A stretch of 34,350 bases of DNA from Promethearchaeota archaeon (GTDB lineage: Archaea; Asgardarchaeota; Lokiarchaeia; Sigyniarchaeales; SOKP01): contig JAEOTZ010000090.1 of the NCBI GenBank assembly GCA_016839585.1, positions 1-34,350 on the forward strand, in the 5' to 3' direction. Below, piece after piece: positions 8,946-17,075 of the stretch. Both the position numbers and the translations under genes were made by a program. The notes beneath the pieces are model-generated. The model was not told the origin of the DNA. It saw only the letters and a list, made by a program, of their open reading frames with translations, and made no database searches. Position 1 is the stretch's first letter. Each line of letters starts with the position of its first letter.

Positions 8946-10373
8946 ATGGTAAAAATGAATAAAGAAGATATATGCTTCTTGCCTGCTTTTGAAATGGGAG
9001 AGAGAATAAGAACTCAAGAACTTACTTCTCAAGAAATTACAGAAGTTATTATCGAAAGAATTGAGAAAATTAATCCAGTTATAAATGCATACTGTACTCC
9101 TACTTTCGAATTAGCAAGAGAAATGGCAAAAAAGGCTGATAAAGCTGTAAAGGATGGTGGAAAGTTAGGATTATTACATGGAATTCCAACTTCAATAAAA
9201 GACTTAATGTTTACTAAAGGAATAAGGACCACATTCGGATCATTAATGTATGAAAACTTTATACCGGAAGAAGATGATATTGCAGTAGAAAGGTTAAAAA
9301 ATGCTGGTTGCGTAATTTTAGGAAAAACAAATACTCCTGAATTAGGCTATGCTGGATCTACTCATAATCGCGTTTTTGGAGAGAGTAAAAATCCTTGGAA
9401 ATTAGATAGAACTCCTGGAGGTTCAACTGGAGGAGGTGGTGCTGCCGTAGCTTGCGGTTTAGGTCCACTTGCATTAGGAAATGATGGGGGTGGTTCAATA
9501 AGACATCCTGCTTCACTTTGTGGAGTTTATGGTATAAAACCTAACCTTGGAAGAGTGCCAGTGTATCCAAATATATGTTTTCACGGAACTGGGTATGTTT
9601 CTTATGGGCCACTTACTAATTACGTTAAGGATGCTGCTTTAATGCTAGATGCAATGAAGGGTCCTCACGATGCTGATAGATTTAGCTTACCAGCAGAAAA
9701 AATTAATTATATAGAACATGTTGATAAGAAGCCTGATAAACTAAAAATTGGATATTCATTAGATTTAGGTTATGCTAAAGTTATTGATACTGAAGTAGAG
9801 AAAAGTGTAATAGATTCAGTAGAAAAATTTGAAAAATATGGATGGACTGTTGAAAAAATAAAAATGAAAATGCGGAAACCGGAGATGTCTTTTTATACCC
9901 TTTATATATCAGATTATTATTATGATCTTAAGCCAAAATTTAAAGAGTGGCGAGATAAATTAGATCCTGAACTAGTAAAAATGGCAGAGGCTAGTATTGG
10001 TTATTCTGCAAATGAAGTGATGAGAGCATTGGATCAACGTGAAAAGATTTATAGAGCAATTTATGAAATTTTTAAAACCTATGATATTTTAGTAACACCA
10101 ACAACCGCAATTCCTGCATTTAAATTAGGATTAATGTTCCCACCACAAATAAATGGAAGGAATGTTTCACCTACTGGATGGATGCCTTTCAGTTTTCCGT
10201 TTAATTTAACAGGACATCCAGCAGCATCTATACCTTGCGGTTGGTCGAATGAGGATTTACCTATTGGCATGCAAATTGTTGGAAACAGGTTCAATGAAAT
10301 GCTAGTACTTCAAGTTTCAAAAGCTTTCGAAGAAATACAACCATGGCAAGATAAACGACCAAAATTTGATTAA
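8946..10373 (+). CDS. Amidase signature family protein (GatA/FAAH-like)
   Basis: GIPTSIKD (catalytic Lys), GKTNTPE, TPGGSTGG, GNDGGGSIRHPAS (nucleophile Ser), LPIGMQIVG. Confidence 0.92.
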   Translation: MVKMNKEDICFLPAFEMGERIRTQELTSQEITEVIIERIEKINPVINAYCTPTFELAREMAKKADKAVKDGGKLGLLHGIPTSIKDLMFTKGIRTTFGSLMYENFIPEEDDIAVERLKNAGCVILGKTNTPELGYAGSTHNRVFGESKNPWKLDRTPGGSTGGGGAAVACGLGPLALGNDGGGSIRHPASLCGVYGIKPNLGRVPVYPNICFHGTGYVSYGPLTNYVKDAALMLDAMKGPHDADRFSLPAEKINYIEHVDKKPDKLKIGYSLDLGYAKVIDTEVEKSVIDSVEKFEKYGWTVEKIKMKMRKPEMSFYTLYISDYYYDLKPKFKEWRDKLDPELVKMAEASIGYSANEVMRALDQREKIYRAIYEIFKTYDILVTPTTAIPAFKLGLMFPPQINGRNVSPTGWMPFSFPFNLTGHPAASIPCGWSNEDLPIGMQIVGNRFNEMLVLQVSKAFEEIQPWQDKRPKFD

Positions 10374-10409
10374 TTATTAAATTTTTATTTTTTTATATAA
10401 TTTTAGAAA

Positions 10410-11498
10410 CTAAAATGATTTCATATTAGAAGTCGTAATATATGAGGAATCTCCGATTGTAATACTTTTTTTAATCAGATCTTCCAAAAAACAATAGTCT
10501 CCTATAATACTCTCTGAAGTGATAATTTTCTTCAAATTTGCGCCATCACCTATAACAGATTCAGAGATAATACACTTTTCTAGGATTACATCATCTCCAA
10601 TGGACACATTTGGGCCAATCACAGAATCTAAGATCTTTGAGTTTTTCCCAATATACACAGGAGATACAATTTTAGAATCAACAATATTACCTGATTGGTA
10701 CATTTTTTCATAAGAAGGGTCTTCTAATTTGATTTCTGCAAGTAAATGTCTATTACCTTCAATTAAGCTTTCAGGTCTTCCAAAATCTAAAATTTCTTCC
10801 TTCATCTCATTAATTTTTAGTTTAAAGCCCTCATCTATGAGTTTTTGAATGACAGGAGTCAAATGATGTTCCTGTCCATTTTCTAATTTAATTTTACTTT
10901 GCTCCTCCAATAATTCAAATATACGGGGAGTTATACTCATTCCAAATAAATAGGCTCCAGAGACAGCATAGTTAGTTTTAGGCTCTTTAGGCTTCTCAAT
11001 AATATTAGTGATATAACTTTCATCATTTAGTTCGATTACTCCATAGAATTGAGGATTTTTAACTTGCTTTACATTCATTACACCATCGCAAATATCCTGA
11101 TGGAACTTCAAGAGAATTGGTGAATAATCTTCTAAAGGGAGTCTATCACTTAGTAAAATGAAACAATCATCATTTTCAGCTAAATTTTTAGCTAATAATA
11201 TGGCATCACCAAGCCCACTGAAAAAGGGAGTATCAGCTTCATAACCAATTGGTTTCTGCACGATAAATTGTAAATTAAAATAATTCGAATAATTTTCAGT
11301 TAAATATTCAGATATTTGCCTTTTCTTATAACCTACTATAAAACAAAGATTAGTATTTTTCGGAAAAGTTTTTTTTAGCTTTATTAGAATATGGTCGATT
11401 AACCTCTTTCCTGCTATCTTTATAAATGCTTTAGGCTTCGAATATGTGAAGGGCAATAATCTCTTTCCTATACCCGCTAGGGGAGCTATAACCCACAT
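10410..11498 (-). CDS. Sugar-phosphate nucleotidyltransferase (glucose-1-phosphate thymidylyltransferase-like) with C-terminal left-handed beta-helix
   Basis: LAGIGKRLLPFTYSKPK, GLGDAI, YGV...IIEKP, DFGRPE and C-terminal hexapeptide repeats (IGKNSKI, IGPNVSIG). Confidence 0.9.
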   Translation of the reverse strand: MWVIAPLAGIGKRLLPFTYSKPKAFIKIAGKRLIDHILIKLKKTFPKNTNLCFIVGYKKRQISEYLTENYSNYFNLQFIVQKPIGYEADTPFFSGLGDAILLAKNLAENDDCFILLSDRLPLEDYSPILLKFHQDICDGVMNVKQVKNPQFYGVIELNDESYITNIIEKPKEPKTNYAVSGAYLFGMSITPRIFELLEEQSKIKLENGQEHHLTPVIQKLIDEGFKLKINEMKEEILDFGRPESLIEGNRHLLAEIKLEDPSYEKMYQSGNIVDSKIVSPVYIGKNSKILDSVIGPNVSIGDDVILEKCIISESVIGDGANLKKIITSESIIGDYCFLEDLIKKSITIGDSSYITTSNMKSF

Positions 11499-12255: not shown

Positions 12256-13026
12256 ATGAAGGTTAAAGGAGTAATTTTTGATTTTGGCTTTACATTATTT
12301 TATTTTGATGAACCTTCTATTGAGAAATATTTTGAATGTTTTAAGACAGGGTTAATAAGTTCTATTGACTTATTAAAAAAACATAATATATTGAAAGAAA
12401 AAATAGCAATTGAAGATTTTATCAAAATTTTTAAAAGAAAAAGAGCTTCCTCTTTTAAAAAAAGTATCAAAACAAAATCAGAAATTCCAACATCTTTAAT
12501 TTTTCAAAATGCATTAAAAATAATGGTAGAAAAAAATACAATAAACGATTTGGATGAATTGAATGATCAATTCTATGTGAAATTAGCAAACATATACCAT
12601 TCTTGTGAAGAAGATGAATGGATTCCTTTCGAAAACACAAAAGATACATTAGAGAAATTAGCCTTAAAAAATTTAAAAATCGCATTAATCTCTAATCATC
12701 CAAATCATAAAACAATTGAAAACATATTAATTAAACATGATTTATTTCGATTTTTTGATGTAATTGTTACCTCTGCTAAATTTGGAAAAAGAAAACCCGA
12801 TCCTAATATTTTTTTTCATACACTTAAAAAAATGGGTTTAGAAAGTCATGCAAATTCTATTATAATGTGTGGAGATGAATATGCTGATATTATAGGGGCT
12901 TATAGAGCAAATTTAAAAGCTATTTTATTAGATAGGAAATTTAAATTCCCTTTTGAAAAGGATATTGACGTCCCTAATTATATAAAAGTGAAGGATGTAT
13001 CAGAGATCTTAAACTTCATTGATTAA
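12256..13026 (+). CDS. HAD-superfamily hydrolase (subfamily IA)
   Basis: Motif I VIFDFGFTL, motif II LISN, motif III RKPDPNIF, motif IV CGDEYADIIGA. Confidence 0.9.
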   Translation: MKVKGVIFDFGFTLFYFDEPSIEKYFECFKTGLISSIDLLKKHNILKEKIAIEDFIKIFKRKRASSFKKSIKTKSEIPTSLIFQNALKIMVEKNTINDLDELNDQFYVKLANIYHSCEEDEWIPFENTKDTLEKLALKNLKIALISNHPNHKTIENILIKHDLFRFFDVIVTSAKFGKRKPDPNIFFHTLKKMGLESHANSIIMCGDEYADIIGAYRANLKAILLDRKFKFPFEKDIDVPNYIKVKDVSEILNFID

Positions 13027-13079
13027 AACAAAAAGCAAATATATTTGAAGAGTTAAATAAAAAATTAAAAAGTTTACTC

Positions 13080-14849
13080 TCAATCAAATAAATTCTTTAT
13101 TATCTCTTTAATTTGAGAATCGTGATATGGTATGTCAACATTATATAATTTTTTTATGTTTCTTCTTATTTTTGTTGGAGAATGTCTGTCAATCTTATGA
13201 TCGATTATATAAATTATAAAATAAGTAGAGGTTTTAAAAAAATTCAGAATTAAATTTTTTGTATGAGTATATTCTAATAAATAGCTTATTCTATCTAAAT
13301 TTGAAACTTTAACAAAATAACGTAGATGATCAATAATTTTATTCATACTTATATCAATACAATTCTCTAATAAAACATTAAAGATGAAATAGCAGACAAT
13401 TTTCTTAACATTTAAAGGTATCCTTATCCCTCCTACAACTCTATCATCGATTTTTATAGCAGAATTAAGGCTTATCCAATTTTCATAGTTTTTACCTCGA
13501 TCTTGAATTAACTTTTGGATATATTTGGATATAGTTTCTTTCTTCATCGGAGATTCACCTTTCTTTATTAAATATTCTCTGACTCCATTAAGAGTTCCTA
13601 AACTTTCAAATAAAGTCTTTAAGTATATTGCACGTCCCTTCTTATAATCCCTACGAGGTCTTTCATACCTAAGAACATCCTTAATATCCATTCCGATTTC
13701 GGCGAGTCTTTCTTGAATTAATGATTTTTTAATTGTCCATTTAAAAGGTTTTATACTCTTAAAAATAAAATTATAAACATTATTTTTCGCTTCAGTATTC
13801 GTAGAATAACCAGTATAATCAGAACCATTTTTGGTTTTACCAATATAAGTACTAATTTTCGAGAAACTGATATCTAAACATTTACATAAATTCTTAAAAT
13901 CAAGAACAAGAGGTTTCGAAGCATTGGTAAATTTAATCCCTATAGCTAAATAATTCTTCTTCTTATTCCAATTTAAATAAATAGAGCCATCTGTATCAAC
14001 AAGTCCTCTTATGCAAGCTACAGTAAGATGTTTATATATGGTTTCCCATTCATTTCGATTATTTTTAATCCAATTTAAATCTCTTTTAATCCAATAAGGA
14101 ATATCTACTTGATTTAAAACTTTATTTCCTGGTTTTATTCCCAAATTAATTAAAAAACGAATTATCTCTTTTTTATAAATTCTAATTAATGTAGTATTAT
14201 CCTCATCTCTTTCTCTAATTGTAGGTTCTATATCAAAAAATGATTTTATTAGGTCTTTAACATAATATACATAATCAGGTTCAGTAGAATTAAAAGAAAT
14301 TTCGCAGAGATAATTTCTCTTTTTTTCATCAAAAGAGATATGACCGTCACCTAAAATTATTCCAATCAACTCAGTTAAAAGGAGAACTTTCTTCCAACTT
14401 AATCCTGTCAAATGATTATTAATTTTGGTACTATTAACATTTTGAATTTTAGAATTTCTAAAGTTTTCCATTAATGTTTTAGTATTATCTAGCGGGCTTT
14501 TCGTCCTTACTTCTTTTTTATAATAACCAATTTCTTTTATCAATTGATACCTTTTTATTATTTTTATCATATAAGTTTCTAAATTATTATTTCCACCTAT
14601 TTCTATGGGTTTATATTTTCCATTTCTTATTATATCTTCACTCTCTTCTGAATTAATATTAATTTTCTTAATTATTAGTTCGCTTATTAAGAAAAGTATT
14701 GAAATTAGAGAAAATATGTAAATTAGGAATTTATTTACTAAATCTACTTTAGTATAAATAAATATAGTTAAAGCCCCGAAGAAAAGTATTAGAAATGCGA
14801 TTCCTTTTCTTAAATTACCATTAATTTTTATCATATTTATTATTTTCAA
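13080..14849 (-). CDS. Free-standing two-motif LAGLIDADG (DOD-type) endonuclease-like protein with N-terminal TM segments and a long C-terminal extension
   Basis: ELIGIILGDGHI and CIRGLVDTDGSI about 120 aa apart, PGNK, IPYWI, IKFTNASKPLV; two hydrophobic helices in the first 60 aa; no intein splicing blocks. An ATG start at 14834 is possible. Confidence 0.85.
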   Translation of the reverse strand: MKIINMIKINGNLRKGIAFLILFFGALTIFIYTKVDLVNKFLIYIFSLISILFLISELIIKKININSEESEDIIRNGKYKPIEIGGNNNLETYMIKIIKRYQLIKEIGYYKKEVRTKSPLDNTKTLMENFRNSKIQNVNSTKINNHLTGLSWKKVLLLTELIGIILGDGHISFDEKKRNYLCEISFNSTEPDYVYYVKDLIKSFFDIEPTIRERDEDNTTLIRIYKKEIIRFLINLGIKPGNKVLNQVDIPYWIKRDLNWIKNNRNEWETIYKHLTVACIRGLVDTDGSIYLNWNKKKNYLAIGIKFTNASKPLVLDFKNLCKCLDISFSKISTYIGKTKNGSDYTGYSTNTEAKNNVYNFIFKSIKPFKWTIKKSLIQERLAEIGMDIKDVLRYERPRRDYKKGRAIYLKTLFESLGTLNGVREYLIKKGESPMKKETISKYIQKLIQDRGKNYENWISLNSAIKIDDRVVGGIRIPLNVKKIVCYFIFNVLLENCIDISMNKIIDHLRYFVKVSNLDRISYLLEYTHTKNLILNFFKTSTYFIIYIIDHKIDRHSPTKIRRNIKKLYNVDIPYHDSQIKEIIKNLFD

Positions 14850-14976
14850 ATTAGTTATGAGTATTAATAACTATTTAAAAAAGATCTATTTAAATAAAAA
14901 AAATAAAAACCAAATTGAAATTAAAAAATACATCTTTGATTGATTTATATAAATATTAAGAAACAATGAGAAAATA

Positions 14977-15100
14977 TAGCCCAGAGGGGATTTGTTCCAT
15001 CTAAAAGTATTTTTTTAGAAGATTGAACCCCTGATCACTGGCTTTTTGCCAATAAATCAAGTCCGCAAGCCAGCGTCCTATCCAACTAGACCACTGGGCT
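14977..15100 (-). tRNA. tRNA-Arg(GCG) with two introns: 37/38 (15044-15062, 19 nt) and 58/59 (14992-15022, 31 nt)
   Basis: Reverse complement folds with acceptor AGCCCAG/CTGGGCT-A, anticodon stem CTGGC/GCCAG with loop TT-GCG-G^A, and T arm AGGGG-TTCAA^AT-CCCCT. 74 nt after splicing; CCA not encoded. BHB central helices TTGC/GCAA and GTTC/GAAC. Confidence 0.93.
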
Positions 15101-15189
15101 ATTTGATATTTAATAATTTAACGTGAATAATAGTTAAAATATTTTGTTTCTCTATAATACTTACTTAATTATCCGTTAAAGTTAATACT

Positions 15190-15858
15190 ATGTTTCAAGA
15201 ATATGGCGTAATTTTTGATGTCGATGGTGTTTTAGTAGATACAGGACCTTTTCATTTTGAAAGTTGGGTTAAAATGGCTAATGAAATAGGAAAAAAGTTT
15301 ACAAAAAAATTCTTTGATTTAACATTTGGTCAACAAAGTGTTCCAATTACTCGAAAATTAGTAGGACCTAAAGTTGAACAACATCTTGTTGAAAAATGGG
15401 CAAGTTTAAAAGAACAATATTATCGAGAAATGGTAAAAGATAAATTAGAACCATTACCAGGAGTCTTAAATTTGATCAAAGATCTTAAAGATAAAAAATT
15501 TAAATTGGCAATTGGTTCAAGTGGTCCTCCTGAAAATGTTGAATTAGTGTTAGCAACCTTAAATTTAACCCAAAATTTCGACGTTATCATAACTGCTGCT
15601 GAGGTGGAAAAAAGCAAGCCTGAACCTGACGTTTTTTTAATTGCAGCTCAACAACTTAAATTAGATCCTAAAAATTGTATTGTAATCGAAGATGCACCAG
15701 TGGGTATTGAGGCAGCTAAACGCGCTAGCATGCCTGTAATTGCTTTAAGAACTACACACTGCAATGTTGATCTTCTTGATGCGAATTTGATAGTGAATGA
15801 TTTAAGATCTGTAAATATTGCTGATATTATTAGATTATTGAATATCAATTTAGAATAA
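15190..15858 (+). CDS. HAD-family phosphatase, beta-phosphoglucomutase-like
   Basis: IFDVDGVLVDT, GSS, KSKPEPDVF, IVIEDAPVGIEAAKRA. Confidence 0.9.
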   Translation: MFQEYGVIFDVDGVLVDTGPFHFESWVKMANEIGKKFTKKFFDLTFGQQSVPITRKLVGPKVEQHLVEKWASLKEQYYREMVKDKLEPLPGVLNLIKDLKDKKFKLAIGSSGPPENVELVLATLNLTQNFDVIITAAEVEKSKPEPDVFLIAAQQLKLDPKNCIVIEDAPVGIEAAKRASMPVIALRTTHCNVDLLDANLIVNDLRSVNIADIIRLLNINLE

Positions 15859-15859
15859 A

Positions 15860-16975
15860 TCATTCAATAAGTATAACATTTTTCTGACACTTTTCTTTTA
15901 TTACTAACTTCCCGATATTTACTACTCTTAATGCTAAATCAGAAATCTTCCATTTTTCATAACCCTTTACATAAGTAGAAAAAGTATCTTGTAGAGGATC
16001 TTTCCATTTTGAAGGAATTTTATCTACACCTAATTGAGCACCAAGAATCGCCCCAATATTTCCACAATTACAATCAGTATCGTATCCCATCATAGCAGAA
16101 ATGCAAATAGATTTACCCAGTGGATCTTTTCCATCTTCAGCACCATATAAAAGAGATAAAATTATAATCCCGATATTGGGTAGAACATGTACTTCTGATT
16201 CTTTTCCCTTTAATATACTTGATCTTTCTGTTTCTGAAGGTGGCTCTTTATCAACTAGTTCTTTTTTTATCTTTGCCCAATGTTCATTAATTAAAACATC
16301 TCTAGCTTTTCTAAAATCTTTTGGATTTTGCTCATATATTGTAATTGCTTCTTTTATAGTGTGGGTATAATGACTTTCTGTTTCATTGGGTAAAAAAGAT
16401 AGAGATTTGTCTATATTTTTCCGTATGTCTTTTTCAAAAAATGCATTAGAAATTAGTTCAGCAACATAGACCTCCCCTTCAATCCCAATACCAGAATGGG
16501 AAATTGTTCCATCCAATTCAGCATAATATTTGGCTATTTCTGGACATCCTGGCGTGATCTGACCCCAAAGATCCGCTCGCATTTGAGCTCCAATAAAATC
16601 ATAATAAGGGTTATTATAAATTCCAGATTGTGGGGGGAAAATCTTTGCCTTTAGATTATTTAATGCTACTTTTTCTGCAGTAAATACAGCTCGTTCAAAT
16701 TTTAAAAGATTTAACCACTCTAAAGCAATATCTTTTGCAGTAAGATCTAACCCATACTTTTCTAAAGCAATAAGAGCAATGATCTCATACATTTCATCGT
16801 CATTCACATAGTTTAAATTAATTTTCTTAGGGTAGTATGTGATTTCACCATATCTACGTTTAATATAATTAACATCTCTTAATTCTACTGGTGCACCCAC
16901 AAAATCTCCTGCAACACGTCCTATCCAAGATCCAAATACTTTATTATAGTACTCGTCCATCAAGATTTCTTTCAT
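15860..16975 (-). CDS. ADP-ribosylglycohydrolase family protein
   Basis: GDFVGAPVE, NDDEMY, GAQMRAD, TISH, GYDTDCNCGNIGAILGA metal-binding motifs. Confidence 0.9.
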   Translation of the reverse strand: MKEILMDEYYNKVFGSWIGRVAGDFVGAPVELRDVNYIKRRYGEITYYPKKINLNYVNDDEMYEIIALIALEKYGLDLTAKDIALEWLNLLKFERAVFTAEKVALNNLKAKIFPPQSGIYNNPYYDFIGAQMRADLWGQITPGCPEIAKYYAELDGTISHSGIGIEGEVYVAELISNAFFEKDIRKNIDKSLSFLPNETESHYTHTIKEAITIYEQNPKDFRKARDVLINEHWAKIKKELVDKEPPSETERSSILKGKESEVHVLPNIGIIILSLLYGAEDGKDPLGKSICISAMMGYDTDCNCGNIGAILGAQLGVDKIPSKWKDPLQDTFSTYVKGYEKWKISDLALRVVNIGKLVIKEKCQKNVILIE

Positions 16976-17075
16976 TATGTTTTAAAAAATTTTTTTTAAT
17001 AAATTAAATTTAGCATATCATTCATTATTTAAAATTTAAGAAATATCATAAGAAAAATAAGAAATTGATAATATA

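Follow-up and report, generated by a model that had tools for sequence, protein, structure and literature searches.

We describe a LAGLIDADG nuclease gene and the tRNA-Arg(GCG) gene directly upstream of it in a 34,350-nucleotide (nt) stretch of DNA from a Promethearchaeota archaeon (assembly GCA_016839585.1, contig JAEOTZ010000090.1, forward strand; this whole stretch is called the window below), and we consider it likely that the two genes together form a mobile homing cassette of Loki-type (Promethearchaeota) archaea in which the predicted endonuclease drives the movement of the pair. The pair sits between two genes that Pfam identifies as HAD hydrolases, HAD_A and HAD_B, and several genera of the family have the gene order HAD_B / tRNA-Arg(GCG) / HAD_A / p176 in common. 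Here G000 is the genome of the window, other G-numbers are related genomes, and L-numbers are the nuclease/tRNA loci that were compared. A preliminary description of the window had reported a co-oriented LAGLIDADG gene 127 bp past the 3' end of the tRNA, introns in the tRNA at positions 37/38 and 58/59, and neither an integrase nor a duplicated tRNA 3' end in the interval 13027-13079. All three observations were confirmed: the first by the Pfam match and position of the open reading frame (ORF; 13080-14849, which starts 127 nt past the tRNA with a TTG codon or 142 nt past it with an ATG), the second by the ARAGORN call obtained after in silico removal of the introns, and the third by a search of 13027-13079 in which no integrase or tRNA repeat was present.

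Recent movement of the pair was apparent when G000 was compared with G168, a Promethearchaeota metagenome-assembled genome (isolate 9R3_44). The two genomes are about 95% identical around the locus (95.3% in the flanks) and 99.5% identical between 13027 and 15100, a tract that spans the far-side spacer, the nuclease gene, the tRNA-to-nuclease spacer and the tRNA gene with both of its introns; there are 10 differences in the 2074 nt of the tract versus 376 in 7928 nt of flanking DNA (Fisher p = 1.2e-26). The edges of this low-divergence tract are sharp: one is no more than 3 nt from the HAD_A stop codon, the other 73 nt upstream of the tRNA. Since non-coding spacers lie inside the tract (the 127-nt tRNA-to-nuclease spacer contains a single difference), selection on the tRNA cannot explain its low divergence. 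These comparisons show a recent transfer of the putative cassette, both introns included, between lineages that differ at the species level.

The flanking genes also differ in their affinities from one side of the nuclease gene to the other. In phylogenetic trees HAD_A and p176 fall with sequences of the window's own genus, HAD_B falls with those of genus g4 (support 95/96), and an approximately unbiased (AU) test with HAD_B rejects monophyly of the window's genus (p = 0.008). The tRNA alleles were parsed by a script that allowed G-U pairs and mis-set some T-stems, and they were therefore also read by eye. The window's tRNA is of the g4 kind, with D-stem GGAC, variable loop TGATC, T-stem AGGGG/CCCCT and an intron 2 that starts with TCTTCT, and the six genus-mates inspected all have the other type (GGGC, AT(A/G/C)TC and GGGGG/CCCCC, respectively, for the first three features) and no 37/38 intron. 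The breakpoint between the two ancestries falls at the position of the nuclease gene. The trees and tRNA types show that, as far as these markers can tell, the nuclease gene separates stretches of DNA of different ancestry, and the 37/38 intron, missing from the six inspected genus-mates, probably arrived in the window's lineage with the cassette.

Comparison of filled and empty sites locates the insertion. The nuclease gene is present in only three (G000, G168 and G150) of the 30 tRNA-Arg(GCG) loci of the family, and about 20 of the 30 are empty, with the HAD_A stop codon about 6-110 nt (mostly 6-40 nt) past the tRNA 3' end. A protein query of 21 genus-mates found a full-length nuclease gene only in G168. 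Overall, filled sites are known from G000, G168 and G150, from the metagenome contigs L009, L010, L011/L012, L137 and L139, and from the genome contig L142. The first ~22 nt of the window's tRNA-to-nuclease spacer are homologous to the spacer at empty sites, and by this comparison the nuclease gene is an insertion, between tRNA-Arg and HAD_A, in an otherwise conserved locus. The gap between these two genes is also enlarged in L065 (G040, ~790 nt), L067 (G129, ~450 nt) and L071 (G310, ~900 nt); no similarity to the nuclease or to a tRNA is detectable in these three gaps, which may hold other inserts or fully decayed cassettes. In L010 an inserted DUF7347 / helix-turn-helix gene (688-1323) separates the intron-bearing tRNA-Arg from the nuclease gene, and the cassette can therefore pick up cargo.

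Beyond the nuclease gene, L010, L139, L137, L009 and G150 retain pieces of a second tRNA-Arg(GCG). They cover tRNA positions ~18-74 in L010 and L139 and ~10-74 in L137, and consist of only the last 15-35 nt in L009 and G150; the L009 leftover matches the allele of the sister genome G249. There is no tRNA remnant on the far side of the nuclease gene in G000 or L011. The existence of far-side remnants argues that the cassette supplies a working tRNA copy and that the resident copy then decays. The genome G345 has no nuclease gene and still has a scrap of far-side tRNA remnant, which suggests a past loss of the nuclease. We also considered whether the far-side copies of L010 (3202-3330), L139 (3983-4110) and L137 (4545-4650) might belong to a split tRNA or to one with a giant intron; the 5' acceptor strand GGCCTGG is absent from those contigs, and these copies were therefore treated as truncated pseudogenes. 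Derived features common to all three are the acceptor 3' strand CCAGGCC, the T-stem GAGGG and an inserted stretch in the variable region, although the accompanying nuclease genes are only ~50% identical, and it is odd that the copies appear more conserved than would be expected for a dead pseudogene.

Since tRNA genes are classic integration sites, and tRNA-derived sequence flanks the insert on both sides in relatives, the locus might instead be the relic of an integrase-mediated, tRNA-targeting integrative element that has lost its integrase and in which the nuclease gene is cargo. Integrase-mediated integration was rejected because there is no integrase in any of the ~10 filled loci and because the flanking tRNA copies are different alleles and not identical repeats like attachment (att) sites. 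In addition, the insert is only ~1.0-2.0 kb long, and the far copy covers most of the tRNA and not just its 3' core, with a 5' limit that varies from locus to locus (~10, ~18 and ~58). We consider an origin of this kind extremely unlikely.

The tRNA-Arg(GCG) gene, the sole copy found in G000, is hidden from routine annotation. Because neither ARAGORN nor Rfam at its gathering score found a tRNA in the raw window, it was spliced by hand; at a relaxed threshold Rfam gives a partial tRNA match of 19.3 bits, and when 19 nt and 31 nt are removed the remainder is a 74-nt tRNA-Arg(gcg) that ARAGORN folds into a normal cloverleaf. By inspection, intron 1 has a canonical bulge-helix-bulge, in which a 4-bp helix (UUGC/GCAA) lies between two 3-nt bulges, GG/A and AA/A, that hold the splice sites; the sequence GGCAAAA at its 3' end is conserved among alleles. 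Intron 2 gives a hairpin interrupted by a 3x3 internal loop, which is a relaxed form of the bulge-helix-bulge, and its position is ambiguous because of repeated A residues, 56/57 or 57/58 being as possible as 58/59. The folding energy of the pre-tRNA is -45.8 kcal/mol (z = -4.05). Rfam detects 24 tRNAs (E <= 1e-3) in the 99%-complete, 3.45-Mb genome G000, in which standard tools clearly under-call tRNAs, in agreement with a 2026 preprint on Asgard tRNA introns.

The nuclease ORF matches the Pfam family LAGLIDADG_3 (PF14528) at 9e-14 and 51.9 bits (the cut-off is 22.5). Its two motifs are LIGIILGDG and IRGLVDTDG, and D163/G164 and D282/G283, which include the catalytic aspartates, are invariant in 11 homologues. 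Translation from the TTG codon gives 589 amino acids (aa) and from the ATG at 14834 gives 584, as called in the 92% homologue P0001; from this comparison the ATG is probably the true start. The protein consists of an N-terminal hydrophobic helical hairpin, a two-motif core (aa 147-360) and a helical C-terminal domain (aa 364-584). An AlphaFold2 (AF2) model with a predicted local distance difference test score (pLDDT) of 75.6 overall and ~85-92 in the core contains two beta-sheet saddles, in keeping with a duplicated alpha-beta-beta-alpha-beta-beta-alpha fold, and the best structural matches of the core are archaeal homing endonucleases; those retrieved by Foldseek include I-Tsp061I (E = 2e-8), I-DmoI (TM-score 0.7, target-normalised) and PI-PfuI, together with I-AniI. 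The hairpin occupies the first ~70 residues and is common to the closest homologues only. The C-terminal domain is conserved and all-helical, with a pLDDT of 92 when modelled alone; it matches no Pfam family and no Protein Data Bank (PDB) structure in Foldseek at E <= 0.001, and its VIA-align Z of 5-6 against LysR-type helix-turn-helix and winged-helix domains is in the noise range for helical domains. Given this weak resemblance, the C-terminal domain probably adds DNA contacts. The ratio of non-synonymous to synonymous substitution rates (dN/dS) is 0.41 relative to L011 (a 92% homologue), and the protein is therefore under purifying selection. The ORF lies outside any intron and, unlike the C27 copy in G000, has no intein-splicing domain. 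A location inside a tRNA intron was rejected because the upstream tRNA is complete. By its predicted fold and catalytic residues, this is a free-standing gene for a monomeric, two-motif LAGLIDADG homing endonuclease.

The purifying selection, the parallel divergence of distant copies and their neighbouring genes, and the combination of a LAGLIDADG core with a helical C-terminal domain of weak helix-turn-helix likeness could also be understood if the gene encoded a vertically inherited, domesticated DNA-binding protein like WhiA, itself among the fold matches, that stands beside a tRNA by chance, is often lost and is not now mobile. This appears very unlikely to us, since both catalytic aspartates are invariant, unlike the situation in WhiA, and since a 10-fold deficit of differences between two genomes is confined to the cassette. 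Nor would it account for the displaced tRNA remnants, for the lack of the nuclease gene in most genus-mates at an otherwise identical locus, or for near-identical copies of the gene across genera at a second tRNA site (site B, below).

Several observations nevertheless weigh against a mobile homing cassette. The amino acid identity of the nuclease between distant filled loci is 45-56%, similar to the divergence of the neighbouring genes, and long vertical persistence with repeated loss therefore explains part of the patchy distribution. The nuclease-side tRNA of L137 is of the same type as that of its close relative G345, which has no nuclease, so that co-conversion does not include the tRNA in every case. 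An N-terminal hairpin of membrane type is unusual in a homing endonuclease. Finally, the discordant placement of HAD_B rests on 13 sequences, and the argument from tRNA type on a handful of positions.

If the nuclease and tRNA genes do form a homing cassette, we suppose that it would move as follows. The enzyme would make a double-strand break in or just beside a tRNA-Arg locus that has no nuclease gene, and repair from a cassette-bearing genome would copy in the nuclease gene and usually the linked tRNA allele, with the conserved tRNA and HAD_A sequences serving as homology arms. Both bulge-helix-bulge introns would be passengers of the tRNA allele and would be spliced by the host tRNA-splicing endonuclease.

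Relatives of the nuclease are found at other tRNA genes. The tree of nuclease cores contains site-specific clades for site A, beside tRNA-Arg (support 100), site B, between tRNA-Thr(GGU) and tRNA-Met(CAU) (96), and site C, at tRNA-Phe and including the G000 paralogue at C20 (100), and this topology shows each of the predicted nuclease lineages to be tied to one tRNA-adjacent site. Enrichment of the family beside tRNAs, a check that the preliminary description had proposed, proved to be strong: Rfam places a tRNA in 8 of the 34 nuclease loci (~3.4 kb each), where fewer than one would be expected given 24 detectable tRNAs in 3.45 Mb, and three more site-A loci hold a tRNA that Rfam missed. The many G000 paralogues that it had envisaged were found only in part, as one close paralogue (C20:17688-18419) does stand beside a tRNA and the other four LAGLIDADG domains in this genome lie inside large ORFs, one of them an intein. 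The close paralogue, of 244 aa (in the locus C20:17514-18419; L003 / L073), ends 12 nt from a multi-intron tRNA-Phe(GAA) with which it is convergent; a matching 5' acceptor strand of this tRNA, GCCAAGG, is seemingly present ~28 nt upstream of an older-looking acceptor strand. The nuclease/tRNA-Phe pairing recurs in G204. The tRNA-Phe nuclease locus of G000 and its G168 counterpart, which we tried to use as a filled/empty pair, are not syntenic and so tell us nothing on this point. In single cases a nuclease gene lies beside tRNA-Thr(CGU) or in a 16S / tRNA-Ala spacer; the latter (L038; G216, contig C411) consists of nuclease fragments with an internal stop between the 16S rRNA 3' end and tRNA-Ala(UGC).

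At site B (L116 / L146 in G138; L103, L105, L114 and L144) the nuclease gene lies on the opposite strand between two tandem tRNA genes, and this site is filled in at least 4 genomes of three genera and empty in more than 20 relatives. Between genera g1 and g4 the site-B genes have diverged by only ~0.12 substitutions per site. G138 retains 27-29 nt of an intron-less tRNA-Met; this fragment breaks off 3-5 nt beyond the insertion site of a D-loop intron and is joined by microhomology to donor sequence, a piece of a tRNA-Thr 3' end, and across the nuclease gene from it stands a complete tRNA-Met that has the D-loop intron. The site-B remnants in G192 and Loki_b32 are only 14 nt long. At two further filled B sites, L143 and L149, the tRNA-Met has no D-loop intron and has a different insert of ~20 nt in the anticodon stem region, and thus the intron positions in one tRNA differ between cassette lineages.

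The preliminary description had further proposed that the introns immunise the tRNA, that is, that homing is collaborative, with the nuclease cutting intron-less tRNA-Arg at the intron site and the bulge-helix-bulge introns protecting the gene and co-spreading with the nuclease. Some of the evidence is in line with this idea. The 37/38 intron is present in 4 of 6 nuclease-linked tRNA-Arg lineages (G000/G168/L011, L010/L139, L009 and G150) versus 3 of ~22 nuclease-less loci, intron-bearing alleles without a nuclease (G109 and G249) are the nearest relatives of filled loci, all remnants that retain the anticodon arm are intron-less at 37/38, and the recently exchanged tract includes both introns; the counts, however, are not phylogenetically independent. 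Against it, two intact nuclease genes adjoin a tRNA-Arg without the supposed protection: the site-A clade gene of L137, which encodes 507 aa, stands next to a tRNA-Arg that lacks the 37/38 intron, and the two-motif gene of L142, with 241 aa, next to one that lacks both introns. The 58/59 intron is near-universal in the alleles of the family, with or without a nuclease gene. The site-A remnants begin in the D-arm, at positions ~10-18, and not at 38 or 59, and beside the nuclease gene there persists an anticodon arm, perfect and intron-less, that the immunity model would expect to be cut. Taken together, these points make protection of the tRNA-Arg locus by its 37/38 and 58/59 introns unlikely, and we would judge collaborative homing with intron immunity improbable.

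A footprint at site B offers the best hint of cutting at an intron site, namely the G138 fragment of an intron-less tRNA-Met, with a complete, intron-bearing tRNA-Met across the nuclease gene. This is one case, and other site-B loci have shorter remnants or no D-loop intron; many nuclease-less alleles there have that intron, and the filled sites L143 and L149 do not. The broader proposition, that the free-standing LAGLIDADG enzymes of Loki-type genomes cut intron-less tRNA genes at or near intron sites and replace them with intron-bearing alleles, seems unlikely to us. In that event, protection at tRNA-Arg would in some lineages have to come from a feature that is not the 37/38 intron. If the proposition were true, it would amount to archaeal collaborative homing and would provide a mechanism by which bulge-helix-bulge tRNA introns could spread and possibly become fixed. 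The homing unit of the preliminary description survives as a mobile insertion that travels with a tRNA, on the strength of the 99.5% tract, the remnants and the discordant flanks; its intron immunity is disfavoured at this locus by L137 and L142. Nuclease presence does not consistently follow intron state, as two intact nuclease genes adjoin alleles without the 37/38 intron and the 58/59 intron is near-universal irrespective of the nuclease. The proposed route for intron mobility is retained insofar as the cassette brings in an existing intron-bearing tRNA allele horizontally.

Features of the tRNA-Arg(GCG) / nuclease locus, in window coordinates.
Feature	Position	Strand	Remarks
tRNA-Arg(GCG) gene, 124 nt	14977-15100	minus	exons 15063-15100, 15023-15043, 14977-14991; ARAGORN on spliced sequence
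Intron 1, 19 nt, at 37/38	15044-15062	minus	canonical bulge-helix-bulge
Intron 2, 31 nt, T-loop, at 58/59	14992-15022	minus	hairpin
Spacer, tRNA to nuclease gene	14850-14976	minus	AT-rich, TATA-like runs, read from sequence
LAGLIDADG nuclease gene (predicted), 584 aa from ATG	13080-14834	minus	Pfam, AF2, Foldseek
Far-side spacer, nuclease stop to HAD_A stop	13027-13079		no tRNA remnant
Recent-exchange tract shared with G168	13024-15173		identity scan, Fisher test
HAD_A, downstream neighbour, convergent with tRNA	12256-13026	plus	Pfam; groups with window's own genus
HAD_B, upstream neighbour, divergent from tRNA	15190-15858	plus	Pfam; groups with another genus

G000 and G168 also differ markedly in two patches of 64-80% identity, at 9000-10750 and 15750-17000 of the window, one of which covers the gene at 15860-16975 beside HAD_B (67% identical at the protein level). 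Judged by their identity values, these patches are mosaic allele replacement near the putative cassette.

These findings bear on how Asgard archaea acquired their heavily interrupted tRNA genes. The locus represents one concrete route by which an existing intron could arrive horizontally, in that a cassette with an intron-bearing tRNA allele overwrites the resident gene, and tRNA alleles in Loki-type genomes can differ in history from the genes next to them. The nuclease family is free-standing and concentrated at tRNA genes here, and censuses of mobile-element hallmark genes may miss it. With the cassette identified, the intron-immunity idea also becomes open to direct test. The LAGLIDADG enzymes known in archaea come from rRNA introns and inteins, and in the literature we found no description of free-standing archaeal LAGLIDADG genes that form tRNA-replacement cassettes. 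The 2026 preprint on Asgard tRNA introns does not report a route through mobile elements. The putative cassette is, in our reading of the sequences, a new form of free-standing homing and a demonstrated route of entry for an intron-bearing tRNA allele into a lineage.

Among known systems, SegB of phage T4 is a free-standing GIY-YIG endonuclease in a tRNA cluster that favours inheritance of the neighbouring tRNA genes, according to a tabulated summary (PMC2988022, Table 1, citing Brok-Volchanskaya 2008). As far as that summary goes, the two systems are alike in having a free-standing endonuclease gene among tRNA genes, and SegB has its target in the tRNA region, with co-conversion of neighbouring tRNA genes; they differ in that SegB is a GIY-YIG enzyme of a phage genome that acts in co-infection, whereas the present gene is of the LAGLIDADG type and resides in an archaeal chromosome. 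The SegB system as summarised there has no tRNA introns, and displaced tRNA pseudogenes are not part of that account. Collaborative (trans) homing has been described for F-CphI with the psbA group I intron of cyanophage S-PM2 (PMC6083498) and for T4 mobE with the nrdB intron that lacks I-TevIII (PMC2790892). There, as here, a free-standing endonuclease gene adjoins an intron-containing gene, and intron and endonuclease gene are co-converted in one tract. For F-CphI and mobE, however, cleavage of the intron-less allele in or close to the intron site has been demonstrated, whereas the present cassette is known from sequence and two filled loci lack the 37/38 intron; moreover, their introns are group I ribozymes and those described here are protein-spliced bulge-helix-bulge introns of 19-31 nt. 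I-DmoI and I-Tsp061I, the best matches of the core, are likewise archaeal and linked to stable-RNA genes with bulge-helix-bulge introns, but they are encoded within the introns that they mobilise, whereas the present nuclease is encoded outside the tRNA gene, is ~3x longer and has extra N- and C-terminal domains. WhiA has the same order of domains, a LAGLIDADG core and then a helical, helix-turn-helix-like domain; it is, however, a conserved, vertically inherited transcription factor that has lost the catalytic residues, whereas the nuclease described here keeps both catalytic aspartates and behaves as a mobile insertion.

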